Of a stretch of 32,000 nucleotides of DNA, positions 1 through 15,381 are shown piece by piece; the first letter of the stretch is position 1, and every line of letters starts with the position of its first letter. Both the position numbers and the translations under genes were made by a program. Source of the stretch: Cereibacter sphaeroides 2.4.1 (GTDB lineage: Bacteria > Pseudomonadota > Alphaproteobacteria > Rhodobacterales > Rhodobacteraceae); assembly GCF_000012905.2 (NCBI RefSeq), contig NC_007493.2, forward strand, positions 2,310,001 through 2,342,000, given 5' to 3'. The notes under the pieces are model-generated. The model did not search any database. It saw nothing but the letters and a program-made list of their open reading frames with translations, and was not told the origin of the DNA.

Positions 1-287
1 TGGTTCTCGAAGTCGAAGCGCGGCAGCGTGTCGTCGGGCTGTGGTTGAAGGAAGACCGCCTCGATCCGGCCCTCGGCATGGGCGCGCAGCTGCGGCATCC
101 GCCCCCGGTCGAGCAGGTTCGCCACGAGCCCGGTGATGAAGACCGTCTTGCCGGCCCGCGACAGGCCGGTGACACCGACCCGGATCACCGGCTCGAAGAA
201 GGTTTCGGAGACGGTGCTGACGGCGCCCTCGATGCCGCGCGCCACACCGTCGGTCAGTCTGCGGAAAACCACGCGCCTGCCTCTCAT
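1..287 (-). CDS. YcjX-like P-loop ATPase, N-terminal fragment (gene continues past window start)
   Basis: Reverse-strand ATG at 287-285. My translation is MRGRRVVFRRLTDGVARGIEGAVSTVSETFFEPVIRVGVTGLSRAGKTVFITGLVANLL... It carries the VTGLSRxGKTxFIT Walker-A block typical of YcjX/DUF463 proteins. The listed + ORF 45-329 is its antisense shadow. Confidence 0.7.
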   Translation of the reverse strand, partial: MRGRRVVFRRLTDGVARGIEGAVSTVSETFFEPVIRVGVTGLSRAGKTVFITGLVANLLDRGRMPQLRAHAEGRIEAVFLQPQPDDTLPRFDFEN

Positions 288-513
288 TGTGCCGCTCTCA
301 GGATAGGCGGCCCTTGCCCATGGATGTAGGCGCGCCGGGCCGCTGTGCCAACAGGCCGCAGCGGAAGTGCCCGGAGGTGGCCGCCGAGGGGCCGCGATGC
401 TTCCCCTCCCGGCCCGCGCCGCAACCCCGACCCCTCGCCCCCGCCATTCGCGCTTCGTGAATGGCGGGCCTCGCCCGCTTGGCAGCGCGGGGCTTGAATG
501 CTAGGGGGCCGTC

Positions 514-1281
514 ATGCCGAGATATGCGCTCAGGATCGAATATGACGGGGGCCCCTTCGCGGGCTGGCAGCGGCAGGCCGCGCAGGCCTCCGTGCAGGGG
601 GCGATCGAGACGGCGCTCGGCAGGCTCGAGCCCGGCCCCCACACGATCGCCGCGGCGGGGCGGACCGACACCGGCGTCCATGCGAGCGGACAGGTCGCCC
701 ATTGCGACCTTGTCAGGGAGTGGGATCCGTTCCGCCTCGCGGGGGCGCTGAATGCGCATCTGAAGCCCCTGCCCGTCGCCATCGTCGCCGCAGCACGGGT
801 GCCGGAGGAGTTCCACGCCCGCTTTTCGGCCGTCGAGCGGCGCTATCTCTTCCGGCTGCTCGCGCGCCGTGCGCCCGAGGTCCACGACCGCGGCCGGGTC
901 TGGCGCGTGCCCCATCCGCTCGATCCGGAGGCGATGCGCGCGGGCGCGGCCCATCTGGTGGGACGGCACGATTTCACCACCTTCCGCGCCGCGGGCTGTC
1001 AGGCCGCCTCGCCGGTCAAGACGCTCGACGCGCTCACGCTCGAGACAGTGGAGGGGATGAACGGCACCGAATACCGCTTCCACCTGCGCGCGCGGAGCTT
1101 CCTGCACAATCAGGTCCGCTCCATCGTGGGCACGCTCGAACGTGTGGGCGCGGGCGCATGGACGCCCGATCAGGTGCGCGAGGCTCTGGACGCCCGCGAC
1201 CGCGCCGCCTGCGGGCCGGTCAGCCCGCCGCAGGGGCTCTATCTGACCGGCGTGGGCTATCCGGCCGACCCGTTCGCCTGA
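514..1281 (+). CDS. truA: tRNA pseudouridine(38-40) synthase TruA
   Basis: ATG at 514 preceded by AGGGGG. The 255-aa product starts [21 protein letters not shown] and has the catalytic GRTDTGVHA motif and a typical TruA length. Confidence 0.95.
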
Positions 1282-1482
1282 GGCGCGACGGTCCGAGCCT
1301 TTCCCCCTGCCCGCAGACCTCAAGCCTCCCGGGCGGCCAGCCCGATCCGCCGCGGGCGGTTCGGTGGCACCAGGGATAGGGGGGAAAGCTGCTCGGGTCT
1401 CGCCGGGCGCTGCCCGCCGCCCGGCGCGCCTTGCGCAGGCCGGCGGTCCGGGTGGGCACCGCGTCGGACGCCCGCCGACCGC

Positions 1483-3570
1483 TCAGGCGTCGGTCAGATG
1501 CGGCTCGTTCAGGTCCTTGAGCAGCCGTCCGTGCCGGCGCACCTCCGAGAGCACGGCGCCGAAGGTCTCGAACCCCCGCCCCTGCAGCATCGGCAGCAGC
1601 TTGAGGAAGGCATCCGCCGTGGCCACCGTGTCGCCGATGGCCGTGTGCCGCGCCTCCTCGGGGATGGTGATACCGAGCCGGTGGGTCAGCGCGTCGAGAC
1701 TGTGCACGTCGCTCTGCCCGAAGAGCACCGCCGAGAGCAGCACGGTATCGAGGATCGGATTGTCGAAGCGGCGGCCGATCAGCGGCTCGGCCCGGCGCAG
1801 GAATTCCATGTCGAAGGGGGCGTTGTGGGCCACCAGCACCGCGCCCTCGGCGAACTTGTGGAAGCGGCGCCCCACCTCGACGATGTCGGGCGCCTCGGCC
1901 ACCATCGCATCGGTGATGCCATGGACCTCGGTCGAGGAGGGCGGGATCGGCCGGTGCGGATTGACCAGCGTGTCGAGCACCTCGGCCTCGACCCGGCGGC
2001 CGTTCACGATCCGCACCGCGGCGATCTGCACGATCTCGTCCTGCGAGGGCATGAGGCCCGTCGTCTCGGTATCGAAGACGACATAGGTCAGATCCTCGAG
2101 CCGCGCCTCGGCCACCTTCTCGTAGCGCGCCTTCGACAGAAGCTCGAAATCATAGACCACGGCGCGCGGAATGGGCCGCGGGCGGCGGCCCGTGCGGCGC
2201 GCGGTGCGCAGCGGCAGGCAGAGGGCGGAGGCGCCGGCCCCCGCGGGCTCGGGCCAGATCTCGGTCGTGTGGGTCGAAAGCACCGTGCGCCCCGTCACCT
2301 CGGGCACGCCCGGCTCGAGCGGCTCGCCGAGCCAGTCCTCGAGAAGGCCCACGGGCAGCGGCTCGCCGTGCCAGACGAGCCGCAGCATGGCCTCGGTGCC
2401 GTCCTCGGTCAGGGTCACGCGGAAATCGTGGCCGGTGCGCCGGGCCGCCACCCGGGCGGCCAGCGTCGCCACGAGGCCGATCACCTCGAAGCCGTTGCAG
2501 CGCAGGAGGAGCGGCGCCTCGCCGATCTCGGCCGAGAGGCCCGCCTGCTCCATCCGGGCGTGCAGCCCGTCGAGCAGGTCCGAGGCGCGCGTGAGCGACA
2601 GCGGCCAGCCGTCGTGGCGGCTCTCGTCGTGGCGCGCGCCGAGTTCGGTCACGGCGGCGGCGAGACCCGCCGCCTCCTGCCGCAGCGCGCGGTCCATGTC
2701 AGGGGGCGGGCAGCTGCCGGGCGGCAGCACCTCGAACAGCGTCTGGAGGTTCGCCGCCGGCCGCCGGATCCGGTCGAAGACCTCGGCCAGCAGCGCCTCG
2801 CGCCGGGCGTAGGAGGCCAGCGCCGAGGTCACGTCGCGCAGCGTGAGCACATAGCCGGGCTTCGTCGTCTCGCCCCCGATCAGCCGCATCCGCGCGGCCA
2901 GCACCCGCGCCCCCACGACCGTGGTGCAGAGGATGTCCGAGGCCGCATCGGGATCGCCCGCCTCGATCAGCCGCCGGTGCGCATGGCGGATCGGCCCGTC
3001 GCGCAGATAGTCGAAGAGGTTGCGGTCGAGCCCCGGCGCGCCGGCCGTATTCATCAGGTCGGTCGCGGGGCCGTTGTAGAAGACGAGCTGATGGTCGCCC
3101 GAGCAGAGCAGCAGCCCCACCGGCACGTCCGACAGAAGCGCCTCGAGCCGCGCCTTCTCCGAGGACAGCCGCGAGGTCTCGCGCGCCACCGACTCGGCCA
3201 GCGCGTCGCGCGTCTCGGCGAGGGTGAGGGCGGTCGCCGAGGCGGCCGGCGCCAGATCGCCCAGATAGCGGGCGGTCGGCTCCTCGATGCCGCCGTCGAT
3301 GCGGGCATGGGCGCGGGCGCGCAGCTTCGAGGCCAGCCGGATGATCGGCAGCGCCACATTGGCGTCGAAGAGATACCAGATCCAGGTGACGAGCCCGAGG
3401 ATCACGAGCCCCGCGACGAGACCCACCTGCTCGAAGGCGGGCAGAAGCTCGGGGGCGTCGAGGCGCCGGTAGGCGAGGAAGAGCCCGATCGCCACCGCCA
3501 CATTCGCCCCGCCCGCGAGCGCCGCGAAGAAGAGCAGGATCCGCACGCGCAGGTTGAGGCGGTCGAGCAT
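1483..3570 (-). CDS. Membrane sensor protein: 2 TM + HAMP-like + PAS-like + degenerate histidine-kinase core fused to C-terminal DEDDh 3'-5' exonuclease (DnaQ/epsilon-like)
   Basis: 695-aa ORF with ATG at 3570, 3 nt after the upstream stop. N-terminal hydrophobic helices are ILLFFAALAGGANVAVAIGLFLA and VGLVAGLVILGLVTWIWYLF. The exonuclease motifs are VVFDTETTGL (ExoI), VAHNAPFDMEFL (ExoII) and HTAIGDTVATADAF (ExoIII, H-x4-D). The central region resembles DHp plus HATPase domains but lacks their key residues. Confidence 0.85.
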   Translation of the reverse strand: MLDRLNLRVRILLFFAALAGGANVAVAIGLFLAYRRLDAPELLPAFEQVGLVAGLVILGLVTWIWYLFDANVALPIIRLASKLRARAHARIDGGIEEPTARYLGDLAPAASATALTLAETRDALAESVARETSRLSSEKARLEALLSDVPVGLLLCSGDHQLVFYNGPATDLMNTAGAPGLDRNLFDYLRDGPIRHAHRRLIEAGDPDAASDILCTTVVGARVLAARMRLIGGETTKPGYVLTLRDVTSALASYARREALLAEVFDRIRRPAANLQTLFEVLPPGSCPPPDMDRALRQEAAGLAAAVTELGARHDESRHDGWPLSLTRASDLLDGLHARMEQAGLSAEIGEAPLLLRCNGFEVIGLVATLAARVAARRTGHDFRVTLTEDGTEAMLRLVWHGEPLPVGLLEDWLGEPLEPGVPEVTGRTVLSTHTTEIWPEPAGAGASALCLPLRTARRTGRRPRPIPRAVVYDFELLSKARYEKVAEARLEDLTYVVFDTETTGLMPSQDEIVQIAAVRIVNGRRVEAEVLDTLVNPHRPIPPSSTEVHGITDAMVAEAPDIVEVGRRFHKFAEGAVLVAHNAPFDMEFLRRAEPLIGRRFDNPILDTVLLSAVLFGQSDVHSLDALTHRLGITIPEEARHTAIGDTVATADAFLKLLPMLQGRGFETFGAVLSEVRRHGRLLKDLNEPHLTDA

Positions 3571-3573
3571 GGC

Positions 3574-3963
3574 TCAGCCCCCCTCGCCCAGCAGCCGGCG
3601 CACCTCCTCGCGCAGGGCCTTCAGCTCGAACGGTTTCGAGATGAAGCCGTCGGCCCCGAGCGCGAGCCCCTTCTTGCGCTCGATGGCCGAGCCGCGGGCC
3701 GTCATCATCAGGATCTTGACGTGGGCGAGCGTCGGATCGAGCCGCACGCCCTGACAGATCTCGTAGCCGGAGACCTCGGGCAGCATCACGTCGAGCAGCA
3801 CGAGATCGGGATGGGTCGAGCGGATGCGGCCCAGCGCCTCCGCGCCGCTGGCCACCCGGTCGTGCTCGTAGCCTTCGCGCGTAATCAGATAGTCGAGCGC
3901 GATGGCGATATTGTCCTCGTCCTCCACAACGAGGATCCGGCGCTTTCTGGCTCCATCGGCCAT
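3574..3963 (-). CDS. Stand-alone response-regulator receiver (CheY-like)
   Basis: 129 aa with ATG at 3963, 1 nt after the upstream stop, and a GGGAGGGG Shine-Dalgarno. The acidic pocket is VVEDED, the phospho-acceptor context is LVLLDVMLP, and MMTARG (Thr) and SKPF (Lys) are present. There is no output domain. Confidence 0.9.
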   Translation of the reverse strand: MADGARKRRILVVEDEDNIAIALDYLITREGYEHDRVASGAEALGRIRSTHPDLVLLDVMLPEVSGYEICQGVRLDPTLAHVKILMMTARGSAIERKKGLALGADGFISKPFELKALREEVRRLLGEGG

Positions 3964-3964
3964 G

Positions 3965-4486
3965 TCACCCCTCCCTGCAGGCCGCCTTCAGCAGTTCGTC
4001 CTCCTCCCCGACCGGCGACCAGCCGGTGCCGGTGAGGGTGCCGTCGGGCCGGAGTTCCGACCCGGTCTCGAGATTCGCCGTGCGCCGGCCTCCGCAGTCG
4101 AAGGCCATGGGAACGCGCTGGGTGTTGTGCCAGCGCTGAACCACCACCACGTCGGCCCGCCGGATGCCCGGATCGCTCTCCGACCGGAGCAGCCCGGTGC
4201 GGTCGAGCGCCATGAAGCGCGTGGTGACCGGAAAGAGCATCGTCCAGGGCCGGAGGCCCACGCGGTCCTCGGGCGTCGAGATCATCACGACCTCGGCCGG
4301 CAGCGCCGCGGCGACGCGCGGATACCAGGTGTATTCGTTCCAGATCGAGAAGAAGAGCATCCCCGCCCCCGCCGCGATCGGCACGATCCATTTCGGCAGC
4401 CGCCGGCGGCTGAGGAGGCGCAGGAGCAGCGCGATCCCGGCAAGACCGGCTCCGGCGGCGAGGGTGGCGAGGAGGTCCATGACCAT
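3965..4486 (-). CDS. Hypothetical membrane protein (two N-terminal TM helices plus about 110-aa soluble domain)
   Basis: 173-aa ORF with strong third-position G/C bias on hand translation. It is tightly packed between the NTase gene (10-nt gap) and the receiver gene (1-nt gap). TM segments are LLATLAAGAGLAGIALLLRLL and IVPIAAGAGMLFFSIW. I recognise no family. Confidence 0.7.
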   Translation of the reverse strand: MVMDLLATLAAGAGLAGIALLLRLLSRRRLPKWIVPIAAGAGMLFFSIWNEYTWYPRVAAALPAEVVMISTPEDRVGLRPWTMLFPVTTRFMALDRTGLLRSESDPGIRRADVVVVQRWHNTQRVPMAFDCGGRRTANLETGSELRPDGTLTGTGWSPVGEEDELLKAACREG

Positions 4487-4496
4487 GGCGGGGCCT

Positions 4497-6317
4497 TCAG
4501 GTGCGCGCGCCGCGGGCAGAGCCCAGCGCGGATTGCATGGTGCGCACGACGACGAAGGCGTCGCGCAGGTGACTGCGCTCGAAATCCGACAGGTCCGAGG
4601 GGGCGAGGAAATTGTCCGGCGCGCGGCCCGACCGGATCAGCCGCGCCTGGTTTTCGAGCCGGATCTGGGCGATCATGTCATAGGCCTCGATCAGGTCGCG
4701 CGCGCCCGAGACCGAGATCACGCCCGCATTCTCGGCCGTGTGCAGCCGGGCGCGCGTGTTCACGGCGCCGAGCTCGCCGATCAGCGCATAGACGCGGCCG
4801 AGGTCGATCACCGGCACGACACCGTTGTGCTTGAGATCGATGTGGTTCTTGTGCTCGCCCGACCGGATGGTGGCGAAGCCGCGGATCAGCCCCAGCGGTG
4901 GCATGTGCTTCAGCGAATTCGCGATCATGTGCGCGACGAAGATCGAGTTCTTCGCGGCCATCCCCAGCGTGTCGGCCTGAAGCTCGTGGAACAGGCTCTC
5001 GTCGCCGCCGATGGGGCGCAGGTCGAACATGACCGACGACAGCATCTGCGCCATCGGGTCGGGCCGGTCGATCCAGCCGAGGAAATACTGCCGCCAGACC
5101 GCGAGCGGCTGCCGCCAGCGCGGGTTGGTGGCCATCATCTCGCCCGGGCAATAGACATAGCCGCAGGCGTCGAGCCCGTCCGAGACGAAGGCCGCGAGCG
5201 CGGAAAAATAGGGCTCGTCGGCCGGCAGCGTCTTGTCGGACAGGATCAGGCAATTGTCCTGATCCGAGACGCCGGTCTGCTCCTGCCGCCCCTGGCTGCC
5301 GCAGGCGCACCAGCAATAGGCCACCGGCGGCGGCCCGAGCTCGGCCTCGGCGAGCGCGAGCAGGCGGCGCGTCACCGTGTCGGAGATGTCGGTGATGAGC
5401 CGCGTGACCACCTCGTGCGAATTGTGCCCCGCCACGAGCTGCACGAGGAGCTTCGGGATCCGCGCCGTCACCGCCTTCAGTTCGTCGAGCGACTCGGCCG
5501 TGGCCGCATCGCGCACCAGCTGCGCCGATGAGACGGCCTGAAAGCGGGTGAGGTCGGTCTGGGTGATCATGCCGACGAGACGGCCCTCCTCGACCACCGG
5601 CAGATGGCCGATGCGCCGCTCGAGCATCACATGCAGGATGTCCGACCCCAGCGCCTCGGGCGCCAGCGCAATCGGGTCGCGGGTCATCACCTCGGCCACC
5701 GGGGTCGACGGATCGAGCCCAGTGGCCACGACCTTGTTCGTCATGTCGCGGGTGGTGACGATGCCGAGGAAGGCGCTGCCCTCGACCACGCCCAGCGACG
5801 AGACGCCCGCGTCGCGCATCTTCATGGCGGCGGCGCGGATCGTCTCGGCCGGGCCGCAGGTCACGGGCTTGCGCGCCATGAGGTCGGCCACCTTCTGCGT
5901 CGTGAGGTCGGAGGCGCGGTAGCCTTGCGTCCGCCGCCGGGTGAAGAACCGCTCGAAGGCCGGCGAGGCCGCGAAGAGCTGGCGGAATTCGTCGGCGGGC
6001 AGCATGAGCAGCACGCCCTCCGAGGTGGACTGCGCCGTGGTCGCGGCGCGGCCGTCGCGCATGAGGCCCCGTTCGCCGAAGGAGTTGCGCGGGCCCAGCA
6101 CCGAGATCACGTCGCCGGACGGCTCGAGGATCTCCACCCCGCCCCGCTTGACGAGATAGAGGCCAGTCAGCCGCTCGCCGTGACGGTAGATCGTCTCGCC
6201 GGCGGCGATCTCCCTGCGGCTGAAGCAGCCGGCGACACGCGCCAGCTCGTCCCGCGGCAGGCTGTCGTAGGGATGCACCGTCTCCAGAAAGCTCACGATG
6301 GTCTGCACGTCTTCCAT
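4497..6317 (-). CDS. cNMP-binding + tandem CBS + DUF294-type (GlnD-like, pol-beta fold) nucleotidyltransferase with DUF294_C-like substrate-binding domain
   Basis: The ORF track starts at a GTG at 6332. I prefer the ATG at 6317 (MEDVQTIVSF...), which has GAGGAG 4 nt upstream. The N-terminal cyclic-nucleotide-binding fold is GLYLVKRGGVEI...FGERGL. It is followed by two CBS repeats and the NTase signature CGSQGRQEQTGVSDQDN (G-S ... D-x-D). The C-terminal region is helical. Confidence 0.9.
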   Translation of the reverse strand: MEDVQTIVSFLETVHPYDSLPRDELARVAGCFSRREIAAGETIYRHGERLTGLYLVKRGGVEILEPSGDVISVLGPRNSFGERGLMRDGRAATTAQSTSEGVLLMLPADEFRQLFAASPAFERFFTRRRTQGYRASDLTTQKVADLMARKPVTCGPAETIRAAAMKMRDAGVSSLGVVEGSAFLGIVTTRDMTNKVVATGLDPSTPVAEVMTRDPIALAPEALGSDILHVMLERRIGHLPVVEEGRLVGMITQTDLTRFQAVSSAQLVRDAATAESLDELKAVTARIPKLLVQLVAGHNSHEVVTRLITDISDTVTRRLLALAEAELGPPPVAYCWCACGSQGRQEQTGVSDQDNCLILSDKTLPADEPYFSALAAFVSDGLDACGYVYCPGEMMATNPRWRQPLAVWRQYFLGWIDRPDPMAQMLSSVMFDLRPIGGDESLFHELQADTLGMAAKNSIFVAHMIANSLKHMPPLGLIRGFATIRSGEHKNHIDLKHNGVVPVIDLGRVYALIGELGAVNTRARLHTAENAGVISVSGARDLIEAYDMIAQIRLENQARLIRSGRAPDNFLAPSDLSDFERSHLRDAFVVVRTMQSALGSARGART

Positions 6318-6343
6318 GAGGCTCCTCGACACTGCACCGGATC

Positions 6344-6372
6344 GGCGCGCCCCCCTGCCCGGGGGACGCGCC
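6344..6372 (-). other. Intra-operon GC hairpin between symporter stop and NTase start
   Basis: GGCGCGCCCCCC (6344-6355) pairs with GGGGGACGCGCC (6361-6372). This gives 11 pairs plus one C.A mismatch and a 5-nt loop. No U-tract follows. Confidence 0.35.
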
Positions 6373-6380
6373 CTTGGCCC

Positions 6381-8198
6381 TCAGTGGGCCGTGGCCTTGC
6401 CGGCACCGCGCGGAATGCGGATGCTTTCGACCAGATCGACCACCTGACGCGGCGGAGCCTTCGTCACCGCCGAGACCCCGAAGGCCACGGCGAAGTTCAG
6501 GATGGCGCCGATGGTGCCGATCGACAGCGGCGAGATGCCGAAGAAGTAGTTGGCGGGAACGTCTTCATACATCGCGGTGCCGGGGATGAAGAACCAGCCC
6601 TTGTAGAGGAAGATGTAGACCGCGGTGAAGATCAGGCCGACGAGCATCCCGAGGATCGCGCCTTCCTTGTTCACGCGCTTCGAGAAGATCCCCATCATCA
6701 GCGCCGGGAAGATCGTCGCGGCGGCCAGACCGAAGGCCAGTGCCACCACCTGCGCGGCAAAGCCGGGCGGGTTGAGGCCGAGCCAGGTGGCGATCGCGAT
6801 CGCGCCGGTCATCGAGATCCGCGCGGCCAGAAGCTCGCCCTTCTCCGAGATGTTCGGGTTGATCGACCCCTTGATGAGGTCGTGCGAGATCGCAGACGAG
6901 ATGGCGAGCAGCAGGCCCGCCGCGGTCGAGAGGGCGGCAGCCAGCGCGCCGGCGGCCACGAGCGCGATCACCCAGCCCGGAAGGGCCGCGATCTCGGGGT
7001 TGGCGAGCACCATGATGTCGTTGTCGATCTTGGTGACTTCGTTGCCGGCCCAGCCGCGCTCGGCGGCCACCTCGGCCATCGCCGGGTTCTTGTCGTTGTA
7101 GTACTGGATCTTGCCGTCGCCGTTCAGGTCTTCCATCACGAGCAGGCCGGTCTGTTCCCAGGTCTTCACCCAGTTCAGGCGCGGATCGGTCTGGATCGCC
7201 TCGACCGAGATCGCATCGGCATCCAGCGCATTGCCCGTCACGGCGCCGGGCCACATGGTGGTGGTCAGGTTCAGGCGCGCCATCGAGCCCACGGCCGGAG
7301 CGACGGTATAGAGGAGCGCGATGAAGACGAGCGCCCAGCCGGCCGAGGAACGGGCGTCGGCCACCTTCGGCACGGTGAAGAAGCGGATGATGACGTGCGG
7401 CAGGCCCGCGGTGCCGATCATCAGCGACATGGTGAAGAGGAACATGTTCAGCATCGAGGGCGTATCGGCGGTGTAGGCGGTGAAGCCCAGTTCCGTGACC
7501 ACCTGGTCGAGCTTGGCGAGGAACGCCTGGTCGCCGCCCGCGGGCGCATAGTCGCCGATCAGGCCGAGCTGCGGCAGGAAGGCCCCCGTCAGCGCGAGCG
7601 AGATGAAGATCGCGGGGATCGTGTAGGCGATGATGAGCACGACATACTGGGCCACCTGCGTGTAGGTGATGCCCTTCATGCCGCCGAACACGGCATAGGC
7701 GAAGACGATCGCCGCGCCGATGTAGAGACCCATGTCGGTCGAGATCTCGAGGAAGCGCCCGAAGGTCACGCCCACGCCGCGCATCTGCCCGATCACATAG
7801 GTGATCGAGATGATGATGAGGCAGACCACCGCCAGAAGCCGGGCGCCGCCCGAATAGAAGCGGTCCCCGATGAATTCCGGCACGGTGAACTTGCCGAACT
7901 TGCGCAGGTAGGGCGCGAGCAGCAGGGCCAGAAGCACATAGCCGCCGGTCCAGCCCATGAGGAAGGCCGACTGGGTGTAGCCGCCGGCCGGGGCGAGCGC
8001 GATGATGCCCGCCATCGAGATGAAGGAGGCCGCCGACATCCAGTCCGCGCCCGTGGCCATGCCGTTCATGACCGGGTGCACGCCCTGACCGGCGGCATAG
8101 AACTCTGCGGTCGAACCCGCCCGGGCCCAGATCGCAATCCCGATGTAGATGGCAAAGGTGATGCCGACCACGATCAGGTTGAGAGTGAATTGATCCAT
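6381..8198 (-). CDS. Sodium:solute symporter (SSS family), VC_2705-like subfamily; probable acetate/monocarboxylate permease
   Basis: 605 aa with ATG at 8198. The N-terminus IAIWARAGSTAEFYAAGQGVHPVMNGMATGADWMSAASFISMAG is typical of ActP-like cation/acetate symporters. The protein is polytopic and hydrophobic throughout. It lies directly downstream of a DUF4212-type small subunit and acs. Confidence 0.9.
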   Translation of the reverse strand: MDQFTLNLIVVGITFAIYIGIAIWARAGSTAEFYAAGQGVHPVMNGMATGADWMSAASFISMAGIIALAPAGGYTQSAFLMGWTGGYVLLALLLAPYLRKFGKFTVPEFIGDRFYSGGARLLAVVCLIIISITYVIGQMRGVGVTFGRFLEISTDMGLYIGAAIVFAYAVFGGMKGITYTQVAQYVVLIIAYTIPAIFISLALTGAFLPQLGLIGDYAPAGGDQAFLAKLDQVVTELGFTAYTADTPSMLNMFLFTMSLMIGTAGLPHVIIRFFTVPKVADARSSAGWALVFIALLYTVAPAVGSMARLNLTTTMWPGAVTGNALDADAISVEAIQTDPRLNWVKTWEQTGLLVMEDLNGDGKIQYYNDKNPAMAEVAAERGWAGNEVTKIDNDIMVLANPEIAALPGWVIALVAAGALAAALSTAAGLLLAISSAISHDLIKGSINPNISEKGELLAARISMTGAIAIATWLGLNPPGFAAQVVALAFGLAAATIFPALMMGIFSKRVNKEGAILGMLVGLIFTAVYIFLYKGWFFIPGTAMYEDVPANYFFGISPLSIGTIGAILNFAVAFGVSAVTKAPPRQVVDLVESIRIPRGAGKATAH

Positions 8199-8213
8199 CC
8201 TGTGCGGCCCCCC

Positions 8214-8495
8214 TTACTCGTCCACGCCGTATTCACGGTCGAGCTTGTTCATCCGCCAGGCGTAGACGAAGATCAGCACGAGGAAGACGTAGATGGAGCC
8301 CTGCTGGGCGAACCAGAAGCCGAGGTCGGCCCCGCCCACCATGATGCCCTCGAGCGCGGGGCGCAGGATGATGCCCAGTCCGAACGAGCAGGCGAACCAG
8401 ATCGCCAGCGAGATGAGGATGATGCGGACGTTCGCCGACCAGTAGGCATTCGACGACGTCCGGTCTGATGTCACATGACCAGTTCTGTCCACCAT
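8214..8495 (-). CDS. DUF4212 putative solute:sodium symporter small subunit
   Basis: 93 aa with ATG at 8495 and a GGGAGGAA Shine-Dalgarno 5 nt upstream. The motif AYWSANVRIILISLAIWFACSFGLGI and the second helix match the small hydrophobic partner usually encoded just upstream of VC_2705-type symporters. Confidence 0.85.
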   Translation of the reverse strand: MVDRTGHVTSDRTSSNAYWSANVRIILISLAIWFACSFGLGIILRPALEGIMVGGADLGFWFAQQGSIYVFLVLIFVYAWRMNKLDREYGVDE

Positions 8496-8527
8496 TGGAC
8501 TTCCTCCCTGTAGGTTTCTTCTTCATG

Positions 8528-8555
8528 CCCGGTCCCTCCTCCTCGAGGGACCGGG
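8528..8555 (-). other. Intra-operon hairpin between adk stop and DUF4212 start
   Basis: CCCGGTCCCTC pairs with GAGGGACCGGG to give an 11-bp stem (8528-8538 / 8545-8555) with a 6-nt loop. On the transcript it lies 6 nt after the adk TAA. No U-tract follows. Confidence 0.4.
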
Positions 8556-8561
8556 GCTCGT

Positions 8562-9251
8562 TTACGCCGACACGCGGCCCACGATACGGCCCAGCGCGCT
8601 CGCGATCTCGTCGATGGCTCCCATCGCATCGATCCGTTCGAGCACGCCGCAGCCGTCGTAGTAGGCGATCAGCGGGGCCGTCTGCGCATGGTAGGCGGCG
8701 AGCCGCGCTCCCACGGTGTCGGCATTGTCGTCGGGACGGCGCTTGAACTCCGTCCCGCCGCACTTGTCGCAGGTCCCCGCGCGCGCGGGCTGCTTGAAGC
8801 TGTCGTGGTATCCCTCACCGCAGGCGGCGCAGGTGCTGCGGCCCGACACCCGCTCGACCATCGCCCCGTCATCGACCTCGAGGCTGATCGCCGCCGTGAC
8901 CCGCTGGCCCGCCCGCTCGAGGAGCCCGTCGAGGGCCGCGGCCTGCCCCGCGGTGCGGGGAAAGCCGTCGAGGATGATGCCGCGCGCGACATCGGGCTGC
9001 GCCATCCGGTCGGCGAGGATCGCCAGCACGATCTCGTCGGACACGAGGCCCCCCGCCTCCATCACCGCCTTCGCGGCCATGCCTGCGGGCGTGCCCGCGG
9101 CCACCGCCGCGCGCAGCAGATCGCCCGTCGAAAGCTGGACGAGGCCGAAGCGCTCCTCGAGCATCCGGGCCTGGGTGCCCTTGCCCGCGCCCGGAGGCCC
9201 GAGCAGGATCAGCACGGGCGGACGGGTGGTCGTCTCGGTCACGCCCTCCAT
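8562..9251 (-). CDS. adk: Adenylate kinase (long form, Cys4 lid)
   Basis: 229 aa with P-loop LILLGPPGAGKGTQ and GFPRT. The lid has CAACG...CDKCG. The ATG at 9251 lies 3 nt after the acs stop codon. Confidence 0.9.
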   Translation of the reverse strand: MEGVTETTTRPPVLILLGPPGAGKGTQARMLEERFGLVQLSTGDLLRAAVAAGTPAGMAAKAVMEAGGLVSDEIVLAILADRMAQPDVARGIILDGFPRTAGQAAALDGLLERAGQRVTAAISLEVDDGAMVERVSGRSTCAACGEGYHDSFKQPARAGTCDKCGGTEFKRRPDDNADTVGARLAAYHAQTAPLIAYYDGCGVLERIDAMGAIDEIASALGRIVGRVSA

Positions 9252-9254
9252 GCC

Positions 9255-11216
9255 TCAGCCCCGGTTCTTGCGGTTGGCGATCAGGTCGTCGACCACCGAC
9301 GGATCGGCCAGCGTCGTGGTGTCGCCGAGCGAGCCGAAGTCGTTCTCGGCGATCTTGCGCAGGATGCGGCGCATGATCTTGCCCGAGCGGGTCTTGGGCA
9401 GGCCCGGCGCCCACTGGATCACGTCCGGCGAGGCGATGGGGCCGATCTCGGTGCGGACCCATTTCACCAGATCCTTGCGCAGCTCCTCGGTCGGCTGGAC
9501 CCCGTTCATCAGCGTGACATAGGCATAGATGCCCTGCCCCTTGATGTCGTGCGGATAGCCCACCACCGCGGCTTCGGCGACCTGCGCATGGGCGACGAGC
9601 GCGGATTCCACCTCGGCGGTGCCCATCCGGTGGCCCGAGACGTTGATGACGTCATCGACCCGGCCCGTGACCCAGTAATAGCCGTCCGCATCGCGGCGGC
9701 AGCCGTCGCCGGTGAAGTAATAGCCCTTGTATTGCGAGAAATAGGCCTCTTCGAACCGCTCGTGGTCGCCCCAGAGCGTGCGCATCTGCCCCGGCCAGCT
9801 GTCGGCGATGCAGAGCACCCCCTCGGTCGCGGTTTCGTGCAGCTCGTGCCCGTCGGTCGGGTCGAGGATCACCGGCTTCACCCCGAAGAAGGGCTTCGAG
9901 GCCGCGCCCGGCTTCACCGGGATCGCGCCCGGCAGCGGCGTGATCATGTGGCCGCCGGTCTCGGTCTGCCAGAAGGTGTCGACGATCGGGCAGCGGCCCT
10001 TGCCGACATGGGTGTTGTACCAGCTCCAGGCCTCGGGGTTGATCGGCTCGCCCACCGAGCCCAAGAGCTTCAGCGACGACAGGTCGTACTTGTCGACCCA
10101 TTCCGGCCCGAGGCCCATCAGCGAGCGGATCGCCGTGGGCGCGGTGTAGAACTGGTTCACCTTGTGCTTCTCGCAGACGGCCCAGAAGCGGCCCGCATCG
10201 GGATAGGTCGGCACGCCCTCGAACATGAGCGTGGTCGCGCCGTTCGCCAGCGGGCCGTAGACGATGTAGCTGTGGCCCGTGACCCAGCCCACGTCCGCGG
10301 TGCACCAGAAGACGTCGCCGTCATGGTAGTCGAAGGTCATCTGATGGGTCATGGCGGCATAGGTCAGATAGCCGCCCGAGGTGTGCACGACCCCCTTCGG
10401 CTTGCCGGTCGAGCCCGAGGTATAGAGGATGAAGAGCGGATCCTCGGCATTCACCTCCTCGATCGGGCAGTCGGGCGAGGCGTGGCGCATCAGCTCCTTC
10501 ACGTCCACGTCGCGGCCGTCCATCCAGTGGATCTGGTCGCCCGTGTGCTTGACGACGAGGCAGCGCACCCGGTCCGAGCAATGGAGAAGGGCTGCGTCGG
10601 TGTTCGACTTCAAGGGCGTGCGCCGGCCGCCACGCGGAGCCGTGTCGGCGGTGATGACCACCTTGGCCTGACAGTCGTTGATCCGGTTCGCCAGCGCGTC
10701 GGGCGAGAAGCCCGCGAAGACGACGGAATGGATGGCGCCGATCCGGGCGCACGCCAGCATCGCATAGGCGGCCTCGGGGATCATCGGCAGATACATCACC
10801 ACCCGGTCGCCCTTGCGCACGCCCTGGCTCACCAGCACGTTGGCCATGCGGCAGACGTTGTCGTGCAGCTCCTGATAGCTGATGTGCTGGGCCGGCACGT
10901 TCGGATCGTCCGGCTCCCAGATGATCGCGGTCTGCTTGGCCCGCGTCGCCAGATGCCGGTCGATGCAGTTCCAGGCGATGTTCAGCGTGCCGTCCTCGAA
11001 CCACTTGATCGAGACCTCGCCCGGCCGGAAGTTCGTGTTCTTGACCTTGGTGTAGGGCTTGATCCAGTCGAGCCGCTTGCCCTGTTCGCCCCAGAACGCC
11101 TCCGGGTCGGCCACGGATGCAGCATACATCCGCTCGTAGCCGGCCGCGTCGACATGGGCTTGCGCAATGAAATCTGCCGACGCGGTATAGACCGCATTCG
11201 CCTGAGCGTGATCCAT
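9255..11216 (-). CDS. acs: Acetyl-CoA synthetase (AMP-forming)
   Basis: 653 aa with ATG at 11216 and a GGAGGAG Shine-Dalgarno. The AMP-binding motif [20 protein letters not shown] and the C-terminal [17 protein letters not shown] (acetylatable Lys context) are present. Confidence 0.97.
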
Positions 11217-11284
11217 GAAAGCTCCTCCAACAGTCGGGCCGCGCGCGGCCCGCTACAAGGCCGCAACGGCGGCCACCCTCCTCC

Positions 11285-11312
11285 ATTAGCCAGAGTGTAA
11301 CGCATCAGTCAA
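11285..11312 (-). promoter_or_regulatory. Candidate sigma70-type promoter for the acs operon
   Basis: The minus strand reads TTGACT (11312-11307) - 16 nt - GCTAAT (11290-11285), about 70 nt upstream of the acs ATG at the edge of an AT-rich island. This rests on pattern match only. Confidence 0.3.
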
Positions 11313-11568
11313 TTTTCGCGTAACTCTTTTTGCCACCATGATTTTTCTGTCACTTTTTTTACTGGATTCGTCGAAAAGCTGTAAATCATGAAAACGGACA
11401 GCGCCATTTGCGCTTGTTTTTCAACGTTCTGCCCGCGCGCGAATGACGCAGGGGCAGGCGCCCGCACAAGGAGAGCCCGAGGCACGGGCGCTGCGGCTCC
11501 CTCCACGCGAGAGCGGCCAGCGGCGCTATGCCGCTGCCGGCGAGGGCCCCCTCGGCTCTGCGATTCGG

Positions 11569-13207
11569 TCAGCTCTCGGAAAGGATCGCGTCTGCGCCCG
11601 CAATGTCTGGCGCATAGCGCACCAGCGGCTCGCGCAGGCCCTGCGCGAGGAGCACGCGGCGCACCTCGAGATTGGCCCCGGTCAGGAAGAGCTGCCCGCC
11701 CCCCCCGGTGCATCTTGTGGGCGAGGAGTTCGAACGAGCGCGCGCCCGAACTGTCGATGAAGGGCACTTCGGTGAAGTCCAGCACGAAGGCACGCGGCCG
11801 CTCGGCGAACCGGTCGAGGGCCGAGCCGAGCATCGCCGCCGCCCCGAAGAAATAGGGCCCGCGCAGCCGGTAGACGACGCGCTCGGCCGTGACGGCGCCG
11901 CCCGCCTCGGGCACCTGCGCGGGCTCGGCCGAGGCCGCGTCGGACATGCGCCGGATGAAGACGAGCCCGCCGAGCGCGAAACCCACGACGATCCCCTCGG
12001 TCAGGTCCCGGAACACCACGAGCAGGAAGGTCGCAAGCACGACCATCGCATCGCCGCGCGAGGTGCGCAGGAGGGCCCAGAATTCCTCCTTCTCGAACAT
12101 GTTCCACGCCACGACGGCGAGGAGCCCCGCCAGCGCCGCCAGCGGGATGTAGGCCGCAAGCGGGGCCGCCACCAGCATGAAGCCCAGCACGAAGAGCGCA
12201 TGCAGCATCCCCGATACCGGCCCGCGCGAGCCTGCGCGCACGTTGGTGGCCGTCCGGGCGATGGTGCCCGTCACGCAGAAGCCGCCGAAGAGCGCCGAGC
12301 CCACATTGGCCCAGCCCTGCGCGATGAGCTCGGCATTGGGCCGGTGCTGCGTCCCCGCCATCCCGTCCGCCACCACGGCCGAAAGAAGCGACTCGATGGC
12401 GCCGAGCAGCGTGAAGCTCACCGCCCACGGCAGCGCCGCAAGGATCGCCTCGCGGTCGAGGGCCGGCAGGGCGGGCGTCGGCAGCATCTTCGGCAATTCG
12501 CCGAAGCGCGTGCCGATGGTCTCGACCGGCAGCTTCAGCACGAGCACCGCGACCGAGGCCAGAACGATGGCGATGAGAAGGCTCGGCAGCCGCGGGGAGA
12601 GGCGCTTCAGCCCCTCGATCATGGCGATGGTGCCCACCGCCACGCCGAGGGCCGCGGGGGTGATCGTCTCGCGCGCGGCCCAGAGCGCCGCGACCTTCTC
12701 CACCAGCGCCGAAGGCTCGGGCCCCGCGAGCGTCAGGCCCAGCAGCTCCTTCATCTGGCTCGCGGCAATGATGACCGCGATCCCCGCCGTGAAGCCCACC
12801 GTCACCGGATAGGGGATGAAGCGGATGTAGCTGCCGAGCTTCAGCGTGCCCACCGCGATCAGCAGGAAGCCCGACAGGAAGGTGGCGAGGATCAGCCCCT
12901 CGATCCCCGTCTGCATCACGCAGGCCGCGACAAGGACGATGAAGGCGCCCGCGGGGCCTCCGATCTGGAAGCGGCTCCCGCCCAGCGCCGAGACGAGAAA
13001 GCCGCCCACGATGGCGGTATAGAGCCCGCGCTCGGGCCCCACGCCCGAAGCGATGGCGATGGCGGTCGACAGCGGCAGCGCGACGATCGCCACGGTCAGG
13101 CCCGCCAGCGCATCGGCGCGCAGGTCGCGCAGCCCGTAGCCTTCGCGGAACACGGTCACGATCTTCGGCAGAAAGTGATCCCAGAAGGTGAGGCTTGTCC
13201 CGCGCAT
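11569..13207 (-). pseudogene. SulP-family anion transporter with C-terminal STAS domain, interrupted by a +1 frameshift in a C8/G8 homopolymer (or a sequencing error)
   Basis: ATG at 13207. The N-terminus and TM core are typical of SulP (DauA/YchM-like): LRADALAGLTVAIVALPLSTAIAIASG. After ...FELLAHKMHRGG the frame turns into Arg/Pro/Ala junk and runs to 11309. The ORF 11569-11793 in the adjacent frame supplies a proper STAS end, GGGQLFLTGANLEVRRVLLAQGL...ILSES. Removing one C from the run 11699-11706 joins the two frames. Confidence 0.75.
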
Positions 13208-13279
13208 GTCCGTGCCTGTATCGCTGATTTTCGCAAGCGGAGCGCCCGGCTCCGCAGCTTGTCAAGCGTTCCCCGGATC

Positions 13280-13774
13280 ATGCCCGAGCCCCGAGACCTT
13301 CTTCAGTCGGCCGATGACGAGGCCCGCGCCCTCGCCCGGAGCCTCCTCGCCCGCGCGCGCCACGCCGCGCTGGCCGTCACCGATCCCGCCACCGGCACGC
13401 CGGGAATCAGCTTGATCGCCTTCGGGCTCGACCCGGAGGGCCTGCCGCTGACGCTCGTCTCCGCCCTCGCGCCCCACCGCGAGGCGCTGCGGCTTCACCC
13501 CGAGGCGGCCGTCCTCGTGGGCGAACCCGGCGAGAGGGGCGACCCTTTGACGCACCCCCGGCTGATGGTGAAGGTGCGGGCCGCGCAGGTCGCCCGGACG
13601 GCGCCCCGGCACGAGGCGCTCCGCGCCCACTGGCTGGCCACCCATCCCAAGGCCAGGCTCTATATCGACTTCCCCGATTTCGCCTTCGTGCGCCTCGCGC
13701 CGGTCTCGGCGGTGCTGAACGGCGGCTTCGGCCGCGCCTGGCGCCTCGCGCCCGAGGATCTGCGCCCGGAATGA
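13280..13774 (+). CDS. Pyridoxamine 5'-phosphate oxidase-fold / HugZ-like FMN- or heme-binding family protein
   Basis: ATG at 13280, in frame with the C-terminal part of the listed ORF 11672-13774. The 164-aa product MPEPRDLLQSADDEARALARSLL...ALAVTDPATGTPGISLIAF...LYIDFPDFAFVRLAPVSAVLNGGFGRA resembles COG0748/HugZ-type split-barrel proteins. Confidence 0.6.
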   Translation: MPEPRDLLQSADDEARALARSLLARARHAALAVTDPATGTPGISLIAFGLDPEGLPLTLVSALAPHREALRLHPEAAVLVGEPGERGDPLTHPRLMVKVRAAQVARTAPRHEALRAHWLATHPKARLYIDFPDFAFVRLAPVSAVLNGGFGRAWRLAPEDLRPE

Positions 13775-13923
13775 CGGACCACCCCGGGGCCTGTCAGGCC
13801 CGGAGCCCGCTGCCCTCCGGGCTTCCCGCCCCCTCCCCCACGCGACAGTCAGGGCGCGTAATCGCGCGCGGGCTTGCCAGCGGCCTGCCGGCCTCGCTAC
13901 CTTCCGTGCATGAGGATGATCGC

Positions 13924-15381
13924 ATGACCTTCACCCGGCGCTGGCTGCTCTCGGCGCTTCTGGCCAGCGCGGCCACGCCGGTGCTGGCCGAGGCCCCGCT
14001 CACCTCGCCGCGCCCGCCGCGCCGCGGCTTTCTCGAGCCGCCGCCCGAGGCGGGCGACCTCGTCGCGCGCGCGGCCCTCGGGGGCGCGGCGGCCTATGTG
14101 GTGGCCGATGCCCGCAGCGGCACCGTGCTCGAAGCCGCGAATGCGGCGCTCCGCCTGCCGCCCGCCAGCACGGCCAAGACGGTGACGGCCCTCTACGGGC
14201 TCGAGACGCTCGGGCCCGACTTCCGCTTCACGACCCGGCTCCTCGCCACGGGACCGATCACGAACGGCATCCTGCAGGGCGACCTCATCCTCTCGGGCTC
14301 GGGCGATCCCACGCTTTCGACCGATGCGCTGGGCGAGATGGCGGCGCGGCTCCGCGCCCGCGGCATCACCGGCATCACCGGCCGCTATCTGGCCGATGCG
14401 AGCGCGCTGCCCGCCGTGCCCTTGATCGATCCCGAACAGCCCGACCATGTGGGCTACAACCCCGCCCTCTCCGGCCTCAACCTCAACTTCAACCGCGTGC
14501 ATTTCGAGTGGAAGCAGGCGGCGAAGGGCTGGTCGGTGACGATGGACGCCCGCGCTGAGCGCTTCGTGCCGCCCGTGTCGATGGCGCGGATGAAGGTCGT
14601 GACGCGCGACCTGCCGATCTACACCTATGCCGGCGATCAGGGCTCGGACAGCTGGACGGTGGCGAGCGGCGCCCTCGGTGCGGCGGGCAGCCGCTGGCTG
14701 CCGGTGCGCCATCCCGAGGCCTACACCGCCGAAGTCTTCCAGACCCTCGCCCGCGCGCAGGGCATCGAACTGCCCGCGGCGCAGGTCGTCCGGGTCCGCC
14801 CCGAAGGCGCGGCGCTGGTCGAGTGGCAGAGCGACCCCCTGCGCGAGATCCTGCGCGACATGCTGAAGTTCTCCACCAACATCACGGCCGAGGCGGTGGG
14901 CCTTGCGGCCTCGGGTGCGCCGTCGCTCGCGCAGTCGGCCGCCGCCATGAGCGCCTGGGCCAACCGGCGCTTCGGCCTCTCGACCGCGTTCCACGACCAT
15001 TCCGGGCTGGGCGGCGGCTCGCTCGTCTCGGCCGCGGACATGGTGACGGCGCTCCTTGCCGCCGAGCGCGAGGGGCTCGGCCTGCGCCCGCTCCTGAAGC
15101 GGACCGAGATCGGCGGCGGCAAGGGCACGAAGAAGGGCGCGCGACGCATCGCCGTCGCGGCCAAGACCGGCACGCTCAACTTCGTGTCGGGCCTCGTGGG
15201 CATCGCCACGGCCCAAGACGGGCGCGACCTCGTCTTCGCCATCTATTGCGCCGACCGCGACCGCCGGTCGGCCCTGCCGATGGAGGCGCGCGAGCGCCCG
15301 CCCGGCGGCTCGGCCTGGCTCGGCCGGGCCCGCGCGCTGCAGCGCGCCCTCATCGAACGCTGGGCCGCCCTTCCCGCCTGA
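13924..15381 (+). CDS. dacB: D-alanyl-D-alanine carboxypeptidase/endopeptidase (PBP4, peptidase S13)
   Basis: I prefer the ATG at 13924 (GAGGATG upstream), which puts the signal peptide MTFTRRWLLSALLASAATPVLA at the N-terminus. The motifs SxxK (STAKTVTA) and KTG (AKTGTL) are present. The length and layout fit PBP4. Confidence 0.85.
   Translation: MTFTRRWLLSALLASAATPVLAEAPLTSPRPPRRGFLEPPPEAGDLVARAALGGAAAYVVADARSGTVLEAANAALRLPPASTAKTVTALYGLETLGPDFRFTTRLLATGPITNGILQGDLILSGSGDPTLSTDALGEMAARLRARGITGITGRYLADASALPAVPLIDPEQPDHVGYNPALSGLNLNFNRVHFEWKQAAKGWSVTMDARAERFVPPVSMARMKVVTRDLPIYTYAGDQGSDSWTVASGALGAAGSRWLPVRHPEAYTAEVFQTLARAQGIELPAAQVVRVRPEGAALVEWQSDPLREILRDMLKFSTNITAEAVGLAASGAPSLAQSAAAMSAWANRRFGLSTAFHDHSGLGGGSLVSAADMVTALLAAEREGLGLRPLLKRTEIGGGKGTKKGARRIAVAAKTGTLNFVSGLVGIATAQDGRDLVFAIYCADRDRRSALPMEARERPPGGSAWLGRARALQRALIERWAALPA

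Follow-up and report, generated by a model that had tools for sequence, protein, structure and literature searches.

What do the four genes that close an acetate uptake and activation cluster in Cereibacter sphaeroides 2.4.1 do, and do their products form one machine? The genes lie in a stretch of 32,000 nucleotides (nt) of contig NC_007493.2 (positions 2,310,001 to 2,342,000 of the forward strand), hereafter the window, in whose numbering all coordinates are given. In the order of the minus strand, they encode a predicted nucleotidyltransferase of the DUF294 type, a 173-amino-acid (aa) membrane protein (TM173), a stand-alone receiver (REC) and a 695-aa protein ending in a DEDDh exonuclease (the sensor-exonuclease). 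A preliminary description of the sequence had grouped them as an uncharacterised signalling and nucleotide-processing module. As judged from its structural model and from alignments, the 695-aa protein is a membrane-anchored sensor kinase whose phosphotransfer and ATP-binding domains are dead and which is fused to an exonuclease. The four genes would form the regulatory end of a cluster for monocarboxylate uptake and activation and fall into three functional units, with a receiver-gated exonuclease opposing the nucleotidyltransferase on one 3'-nucleotidyl mark. We consider this the best explanation as a whole, at somewhat below an even chance.

4497-6317, minus strand: DUF294 nucleotidyltransferase of the COG2905 type, 606 aa, with cNMP-binding, two CBS, DUF294 and DUF294_C domains (open reading frame list and Pfam)
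3965-4486, minus strand: TM173, 173 aa (open reading frame list)
3574-3963, minus strand: REC, 129 aa (open reading frame list and Pfam)
1483-3570, minus strand: sensor-exonuclease, 695 aa (open reading frame list, Pfam and AlphaFold model)

The AlphaFold model of the 695-aa protein was built on 49 homologues and has a pLDDT (predicted local distance difference test) of 79. Foldseek searches with this model retrieved whole sensor kinases, namely WalK, VicK, YF1, LOV-HK and ThkA, at E values of 1e-11 to 1e-15. A profile of 13 diverse N-terminal regions searched against the PDB matched VicK at 6.8e-17 and the HAMP regions of Tsr (1e-6), NarQ and Af1503 chimeras. By both approaches the protein has the HAMP-PAS-DHp-CA fold of sensor histidine kinases. 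The preliminary description had read it as a transmembrane-HAMP-PAS-pseudokinase fused to a DEDDh exonuclease, and the model, the Foldseek matches and the family profile bear this out; Pfam sees the exonuclease only. The parts were assigned as follows.

3385-3552, minus strand: two transmembrane helices, aa 7-62 (helices 7-36 and 40-88 by DSSP on the model)
3196-3375, minus strand: HAMP domain, aa ~66-125 (profile matches; helix-connector-helix in the model)
2833-3123, minus strand: PAS domain, aa ~150-246 (strand pattern in the model; PAS_4, PAS and PAS_9 matches in homologues)
2620-2832, minus strand: DHp-like helical hairpin, aa 247-317 (VicK alignment; Asp266 at the phospho-His position)
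2194-2598, minus strand: CA-like alpha/beta domain, aa 325-459 (VicK and ThkA alignments, family alignment, pLDDT 85-92)
1579-2085, minus strand: DEDDh 3'-5' exonuclease domain, aa 496-664 (catalytic pentad intact)

The loop between the two transmembrane helices is only about 3 residues long, and the protein thus has no periplasmic sensor domain. A W65-x-L-F-D motif is conserved where the chain leaves the membrane. Within the PAS domain, C156, H160, N166 and R183 do not vary among 13 members of the family with 23-60% identity and, to judge from this conservation, may form a ligand or cofactor site.

The kinase core has lost the residues on which catalysis depends. The SHELRTP motif of VicK aligns over FDRIRRP of the sensor-exonuclease, placing Asp266 where the phospho-accepting histidine of the H-box would stand; in the 13 diverse relatives this column holds D, E, V or T and in none of them H, and D266, R267 and R270 are invariant in the 49 homologue sequences. 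In the CA domain the alignments show no conserved N-box Asn, an invariant W400 in place of the G1 Asp and a degenerate G2 box, so that the ATP-binding motifs are lost; Pfam finds no HATPase_c match in the 695-aa protein. Two shorter relatives of about 465 aa (P0236 and P0250) join the sensor region, equivalent to about residues 1-245 of the window protein, straight to the exonuclease, without the DHp/CA pseudokinase.

The exonuclease itself appears fully equipped. Pfam RNase_T (PF00929) matches aa 497-655 at 2.4e-38, and D500, E502, D587, H642 and D647 of the ExoI, ExoII and ExoIII motifs of the DEDDh family are invariant across the 49 homologues. In sequence searches of the PDB the domain matches the PolC exonuclease at 2.6e-27 and epsilon at 1.8e-14, and Foldseek superposes the model on epsilon, PolC and DinG with root-mean-square deviations of 2.1-2.7 A (target-normalised TM-score to epsilon 0.82-0.84).

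How widely is this protein kept, and with which neighbours? Relatives of the N-terminal sensor region, clustered at 50% identity, number 874 at E < 1e-3, 466 at < 1e-10 and 161 at < 1e-30; the majority of the family are ~700 aa long and carry the exonuclease, and full-length homologues make up at least 120 clusters. At least 572 stretches in species-representative genomes encode a sensor-region relative. Loci were searched with the narrower alignments A3 and A4, the 13-sequence alignment A2 being too diverse, and two sets were compared. The Paracoccaceae set comprises the 80 best loci of the at least 572 stretches, one per species, with N-terminal identity down to 52%; the distant set comprises 80 metagenome loci whose members are 20-34% identical to the window protein.

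In the Paracoccaceae set the order acs-adk-DUF4212-symporter-DUF294-TM173-REC-sensor-exonuclease on one strand is essentially invariant (REC is present in 79 loci, DUF294 and TM173 in 78 each, the symporter in 71, adk in 67 and acs in 64, most absences falling at contig ends). The symporter here is of the two-subunit VC_2705 type of the sodium:solute symporter (SSF) family, its TIGR03648 large subunit being preceded by a TIGR03647/DUF4212 small subunit. In the window all open reading frames from acs to the sensor-exonuclease are likewise co-directional, and the cluster is completed and bounded by the following genes.

9255-11216, minus strand: acs, acetyl-CoA synthetase (Pfam)
8562-9251, minus strand: adk, adenylate kinase (Pfam)
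8214-8495, minus strand: DUF4212 small subunit (TIGR03647, E 2.8e-33, 114 bits against a cutoff of 26)
6381-8198, minus strand: large subunit of the VC_2705-type SSF symporter (TIGR03648, E 7.8e-243, 807 bits against a cutoff of 321)
514-1281, plus strand: truA, convergent to the sensor-exonuclease end at 1483

Co-occurrence of the module genes reaches far beyond close relatives. Carriers of the sensor-exonuclease outside the Paracoccaceae include Algihabitans, Stellaceae, Dongiaceae, Rhodovastum, Telmatospirillum and the gammaproteobacterial Competibacteraceae. Among the distant loci, 38 have 6 kb or more of flank, and 27 of these contain DUF294, for the most part immediately after an SSF symporter gene, a position that it also holds in Paracoccaceae, Competibacteraceae, soil alphaproteobacteria, Marinobacterium and P. 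aeruginosa. The tie to acs and adk, on which the preliminary description laid weight, holds in the Paracoccaceae but is lineage-specific: distant loci keep REC and the sensor-exonuclease, often with DUF294 and a symporter, and acs and adk are rare in them.

Several unusual loci turned up in the same searches. In Rhodovastum an IS605 OrfB/TnpB-like gene (locus L165, 8379-9470) lies directly upstream of the REC-sensor-exonuclease pair, which may have been relocated. A locus labelled as a metagenome-assembled genome of Exiguobacterium profundum (L072; CP059262.1, 4225932-4247350) has a Paracoccaceae-like SulP-acs-adk-REC-sensor-exonuclease order with no match to the symporter, DUF4212, DUF294 or TM173, and is probably both a mislabelled bin and a natural deletion variant. 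An apparent sensor-exonuclease-CBS-DUF294 fusion of 1154 aa (P0269, on a JGI contig) was rejected as Rosetta-stone evidence; it is probably a deletion or an assembly chimera because its exonuclease lacks the ExoIII motif and it is known from one 5-kb contig.

The most constant partner of the sensor-exonuclease is REC. As the preliminary description had it, this is a stand-alone CheY-like receiver with the full set of phospho-chemistry residues (E14, D15, D58, T88, F107 and K110; Response_reg 6.5e-26), 129 aa long and without an output domain. Its gene ends 3 nt upstream of the sensor-exonuclease gene here and overlaps it in relatives, and the two are taken to be coupled in translation; it adjoins that gene upstream in 79 of the 80 Paracoccaceae loci and, on the same strand, in 60 of the 64 distant loci with sufficient upstream sequence.

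A candidate for the kinase that feeds this receiver came from the distant set, where a kinase gene stands directly downstream of the sensor-exonuclease gene in 39 of 60 loci with downstream sequence and elsewhere in the locus in 5 more. The encoded protein is a genuine kinase of ~909 aa (HisKA 2.5e-21, HATPase_c 2.7e-29) whose N-terminal 650 aa form a multi-transmembrane domain with a short SSF-like local match. This N-terminus is 46% identical to that of a 1322-aa MxtR-like hybrid kinase of Marinobacterium, which adjoins acs and an ErdR-like regulator (NF041830, 3e-87). In addition, the N-terminus of the copy in locus L145 (8157-10886) matches PDB entry 10ed_A, a solved 606-aa chain named 'histidine kinase', at 1.2e-67, and a structure of this kinase class thus seems to exist. 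From these matches we read the neighbour as a probable transporter-like (SLC5/STAC) kinase of the CbrA/CrbS/MxtR type. No LuxR-type regulator was found in almost all of the metagenome loci, the single exception being L103, and REC is therefore usually the sole receiver beside the kinase. One locus, L085, combines DUF294, TM173, REC, sensor-exonuclease and kinase. The preliminary description of a signalling module stands as to its domains; it missed the likely kinase input, which is beside REC and the sensor-exonuclease in many relatives and not in the window.

The putative opposing enzyme is the DUF294 protein. In the 611-aa open reading frame Pfam finds a cNMP_binding domain (2.4e-17, 63 bits), two CBS domains (1.3e-25, 90 bits), DUF294 (PF03445; 8.8e-49, 165 bits against a cutoff of 21) and DUF294_C (PF10335; 1.1e-42, 146 bits against a cutoff of 22.5). 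An N-terminal cNMP domain and CBS pair followed by PF03445 and PF10335 above their gathering scores place the protein in the DUF294/COG2905 family, in agreement with the earlier reading of a cNMP-CBS-CBS-pol-beta nucleotidyltransferase with a DUF294_C-like domain, and the motif CGSQGRQEQTGVSDQDN is present. Indeed, Pfam and NCBIfam searches upheld every domain that the preliminary description had named. The pol-beta motif, GSQGRQEQTGVSDQDN, has G71, S72, G74, R75, E77, D83, Q84, D85 and N86 invariant in 12 diverse members, the GSxGRxE...DQDN core being kept in homologues down to 26% identity, and the Marinobacterium member is homologous over the full length (3e-41). The motifs thus predict a nucleotidyltransferase. 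PDB searches with the nucleotidyltransferase region, as a single sequence and as a profile, gave no match, and the literature searched held no biochemical report of nucleotidyl transfer by the DUF294 family.

Part of this arrangement has been met before. The preliminary description had named DUF294/exonuclease pairs beside acetate-permease loci in Pseudomonas; these are real (PA3232-PA3235, PP_0353/PP_0354 and PFLU5625), and unfused DUF294/RNase_T pairs were also seen directly in P. knackmussii and Marinobacterium loci. For Vibrio, its other example, a literature search by locus tag gave no match. PA3232-PA3235 are co-induced ~16-fold on propionate. PP_0354/PP_0353 and PFLU5625 are direct targets of CrbS/R (MxtR/ErdR), the CrbR motif is conserved upstream of gammaproteobacterial homologues, and the pair is among the most strongly MxtR/ErdR-dependent genes of Pseudomonas. 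Papers from 2017 to 2026 gave the pair no function, and the statement that no biochemical role has been assigned to it was still true of a preprint of September 2026.

Mutant phenotypes give some indication of its role. Deletions of the pair in P. putida had no acetate phenotype. On pyruvate, the exonuclease mutant resembled the yjcH and actP-I mutants and the nucleotidyltransferase mutant showed little phenotype. On propionate, both were mildly impaired and the symporter mutants were not. Shewanella and P. stutzeri require the DUF4212-SSF transporter on lactate or D-alanine, and the DUF4212 symporter shows cofitness with a nearby gene described as 'COG2905 (RNase T domain protein)'; the authors speculate that this gene is required for symporter expression.

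Like the Pseudomonas pair, the window genes encode a cNMP-CBS-DUF294-DUF294_C protein and, after it, a DEDDh exonuclease, and have genes for an SSF monocarboxylate symporter and Acs as neighbours. The unfused exonucleases, however, are soluble proteins of 209-234 aa, whereas here the domain forms the C-terminus of a membrane-anchored dead kinase with its own receiver. Furthermore, in Pseudomonas the SLC5-type kinase is linked to the pair transcriptionally, through the CrbR ACTU motif, whereas the fused lineage appears to make this link post-translationally. The literature searched held nothing on the kinase-fused exonuclease, its REC partner or TM173. The core pair is already known; its pseudokinase-fused, receiver-controlled form, the recurrent SLC5-type kinase neighbour and TM173 appear, as far as we found, to be undescribed.

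TM173 deserves separate treatment. The preliminary description had called it a two-transmembrane protein of no recognisable family; the two helices are confirmed and Pfam and NCBIfam hold no match. We found 38 homologues, including proteins of Marinobacterium and P. knackmussii, where the gene directly follows DUF4212-SSF beside the unfused DUF294/RNase_T pair. The AlphaFold model (pLDDT 91) has two N-terminal transmembrane helices separated by a basic RRRLPKW loop and then a beta-rich C-terminal domain; a Foldseek search of the PDB with it gave no match below E 0.3. C131 and C170 are invariant among the homologues. By the positive-inside rule and the conserved cysteine pair, the loop would be cytoplasmic and the C-terminal domain periplasmic. 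Since TM173 travels with the symporter, has two invariant cysteines and has this probable topology, it fits better as an accessory of the symporter than as a signalling part, and the four genes are thus not one four-part machine, contrary to the first view of them. A 192-aa protein that lies between the symporter and DUF294 genes in Competibacteraceae was considered as a TM173 homologue and rejected (hhalign probability 0.4).

Are the four genes expressed together with acs? The preliminary description placed them inside the acetate operon and took the gaps of 63, 10, 1 and 3 nt as a sign of co-transcription. The four genes and the gap sizes are correct when the ATG at 6317, which has GAGGAG 4 nt upstream, is taken as the DUF294 start in place of the GTG at 6332 of the mechanical 611-aa open reading frame. 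The genes are not embedded, since the cluster stops at 1483 and the convergent truA comes next; they form its distal end. A single transcript with acs is also uncertain, because the gap between the symporter and DUF294 genes holds a conserved hairpin, and small gaps are no proof.

6344-6372, minus strand: GC-rich hairpin of 12 bp between the symporter and DUF294 genes (RNAfold gives the gap -36 kcal/mol)

Of 74 Paracoccaceae loci, 73 have an unbroken stem of 8 bp or longer at this junction; its sequence differs between loci (median z -2.8 against shuffles), and a T-rich tail comes after only 17 of the stems. Marinobacterium (L004) has a classical terminator there, and in soil alphaproteobacteria the gap is just 15 nt. 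The hairpin is possibly an attenuator, a 3'-end-defining element or a stabiliser, and the four genes may be expressed by lower-level read-through or from a start of their own. A sigma-70 promoter scan gave no match, and terminator-like matches fell only inside genes.

Other features of the cluster may be recorded here. Further strong hairpins lie on the minus strand in the adk-DUF4212 gap (8496-8561, -29 kcal/mol) and upstream of acs (11217-11308, -36 kcal/mol), and the series suggests that the mRNA of the cluster is stabilised or attenuated segment by segment. Rfam and tRNA scans of window positions 1-14500 gave no matches. The adenylate kinase at 8562-9251 is full-length with a zinc-ribbon-type lid; it is kept between acs and the symporter genes in 67 of the 80 loci and plausibly recycles the AMP produced by Acs. 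A SulP/STAS anion transporter gene (11309-13207, minus strand), co-directional with acs and 92 nt upstream of it, may provide the cluster with another organic-anion carrier; it has the same position in 32 of the 80 Paracoccaceae loci, contig ends truncating many of these.

How could these parts work together? In the explanation that we favour, TM173 would be a periplasm-facing membrane accessory of the VC_2705-type symporter, the activity of the nucleotidyltransferase would be set by adenylate inputs through the CBS domains and by cyclic-nucleotide inputs, and REC and the 695-aa protein would act as the final two steps of a phosphorelay that ends in an exonuclease and not in transcription. The kinase upstream of REC would be of the CbrA/CrbS type in many relatives and, in the window genome, would not be encoded in cis. 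Phosphorylated REC would dock on a DHp/CA scaffold that no longer binds ATP or takes phosphate, and would thereby switch the fused DEDDh exonuclease, which the two-helix anchor would hold at the membrane. The nucleotidyltransferase would add a 3'-nucleotidyl mark and the exonuclease would remove the same mark, its removal favouring symporter expression or activity. An inhibitory writer and an activating eraser fit the pyruvate data from P. putida, since the exonuclease mutant there phenocopies the loss of the symporter genes and the nucleotidyltransferase mutant shows little phenotype. To our knowledge, all characterised DEDDh enzymes cleave 3'-terminal nucleotides of nucleic acids, which counts for this account. 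As the marked molecule we prefer an RNA 3' end, for example that of the operon mRNA, to a protein side chain; this preference is tentative. The stronger statement, that an SLC5/STAC kinase, REC, a dead-kinase scaffold and a DEDDh domain make up a two-component pathway with a nuclease as its output, opposing a GlnD-like nucleotidyltransferase in post-transcriptional tuning of the symporter, appears to us doubtful in its full form.

Individual steps of this scheme have precedents. In Caulobacter the pseudokinase DivL, with Tyr at the His position, reads the phosphorylated single-domain receiver DivK and controls the kinase CckA. Like DivL and DivK, the window proteins pair a histidine-kinase fold lacking the phospho-histidine with a stand-alone receiver, and the proposed docking of phosphorylated REC on DHp/CA is drawn by analogy with them; unlike DivL, the sensor-exonuclease family has Asp or Glu at the His position, and its output is a fused nuclease. 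Intramembrane-sensing histidine kinases such as BceS sense through their cognate transporter. The sensor-exonuclease, as modelled, shares with BceS two transmembrane helices with a minimal loop, a HAMP domain directly after them and a gene beside that of a transporter, and its anchor with the 3-residue loop may by analogy resemble these kinases in reading its transporter; its kinase, however, is catalytically dead and contact with the transporter is hypothetical here. In E. coli, poly(A) polymerase I and RNase II or RNase T exert tail-and-trim control over mRNA 3' hairpins. That system too sets a pol-beta nucleotidyltransferase against a 3'-5' exonuclease, and a strong hairpin stands just after the symporter gene here; the enzyme families differ, and the system here would be locus-specific and sensor-gated. 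As for the input, relatives of the module resemble CbrA, CrbS/MxtR and RpuS systems in encoding an SLC5/STAC kinase, here placed after the sensor-exonuclease, and in the theme of acetate, pyruvate or monocarboxylate uptake. Unlike those systems, the kinase of the relatives is non-hybrid and paired with a single-domain receiver rather than a LuxR- or NtrC-type regulator.

A number of observations weigh against the favoured explanation. Propionate hurts both P. putida mutants and spares the symporter mutants, so that simple antagonism acting on the symporter is not the whole story; the idea of a writer and an eraser, already raised in the preliminary description, is compatible with the pyruvate phenotypes and does not fit those on propionate cleanly. 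The fused exonuclease shares only 25% identity with its unfused counterpart in gammaproteobacteria and stands nearer to the PolC type, and the two may therefore be non-orthologous. Neither an SLC5-type kinase nor an ErdR-like regulator was found in the window or in the 80 Paracoccaceae loci, which places the locus outside the CrbS/CrbR (MxtR/ErdR) systems as far as these genes are concerned, the ACTU motif not having been searched for. Competibacteraceae have DUF4212-SSF, the unrelated 192-aa gene, DUF294 and the sensor-exonuclease without REC, and Rhodovastum has REC and the sensor-exonuclease with neither DUF294 nor a symporter within 10 kb. Finally, the closest resemblance of the nucleotidyltransferase, a weak one, is to GlnD and GlnE, enzymes that modify proteins, and this speaks for a protein target.

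This last point leads to reversible protein nucleotidylylation, in which the DUF294 protein would AMPylate or UMPylate the symporter, its small subunit, Acs or a PII-like regulator and the DEDDh domain would remove the group by hydrolysing a Tyr-, Ser- or Thr-O-P-nucleoside diester, a bond analogous to a 3'-terminal phosphodiester. The authors of the Pseudomonas papers favour this reading, and a membrane anchor like that of the model would put the eraser beside the symporter. DUF294_C shares a Pfam clan (HEPN/KNTase_C) with the C-terminal domains of GlnD and GlnE, the G-x-G-R-x-E...D-x-D motif resembles theirs, and 3 of the 12 members give weak, sub-threshold matches to GlnE (0.0057) and GlnD_UR_UTase (0.013). 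The likeness extends to a pol-beta core with a helical KNTase_C-clan domain and to metabolite-gated regulation. However, Pfam finds in the DUF294 protein no HD or second nucleotidyltransferase domain, which GlnD and GlnE use for removal; it also differs from them in having no ACT domains, its sensors being cNMP and CBS domains and its partner an exonuclease. Profile searches did not reach any solved structure of GlnE, GlnD or DrrA, and we know of no DEDDh exonuclease that removes a protein-linked nucleotide. We regard a protein target as fairly unlikely. Still less is to be said for a nucleotide messenger, a linear or cyclic (oligo)nucleotide that the nucleotidyltransferase would make and the exonuclease degrade, as Orn and NrnC do pGpG, at a rate set by phosphorylated REC. 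Pol-beta nucleotidyltransferases do include messenger synthases, DEDDh enzymes can degrade dinucleotides and a cNMP-binding domain is fused to the nucleotidyltransferase in this lineage, but that domain is absent from many DUF294 partners (for example, those of L145 and L166), no receptor or effector is evident in the loci, PADLOC gives no CD-NTase-like match, and the close linkage in cis to a single symporter speaks for a local, not a diffusible, target. This possibility seems to us very unlikely.

The genes might also be neighbours with no shared chemistry, the exonuclease acting in RNA processing or DNA repair under its own two-component control and the DUF294 protein regulating the symporter through its CBS and cNMP domains. 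The Rhodovastum locus, the adk-REC-sensor-exonuclease arrangement kept in L072 after loss of symporter, DUF294 and TM173, the different behaviour of the two P. putida mutants on pyruvate and the distant relationship of fused and unfused exonucleases are all in keeping with such independence. It would, however, leave hard to explain why the pair recurs in adjacent positions across Alpha- and Gammaproteobacteria, with three SSF subfamilies and two exonuclease lineages, and we judge it quite unlikely. A nucleotidyltransferase with a nuclease is also a common theme of defence, and an anti-phage or mobile-element module inserted beside acs was considered. PADLOC returned only generic domain-level matches to DEDDh and REC and none for DUF294 or TM173, G+C (66-74% in the window) does not depart from that of the flanks, 80 species keep the same synteny with metabolic genes, and the pair is under a carbon-source two-component system in Pseudomonas. 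A defence system was rejected as exceedingly improbable.

Collectively, the fused form adds testable structure to a pair that had gone unexplained, in that it points to the receiver as the likely partner of the exonuclease and to the likely class of the upstream kinase. It also indicates two ways of wiring one kinase class to the pair, through transcription in gammaproteobacteria and, as it appears, after translation in alphaproteobacteria, and it sets TM173 apart as a new family of periplasm-facing symporter accessories. If the favoured explanation is true, the locus would represent a rare two-component system with a nuclease output and a new bacterial way of coupling energy charge to organic-acid uptake, and it would provide the first biochemical logic for the widespread CrbS/R-regulated DUF294/exonuclease pair.

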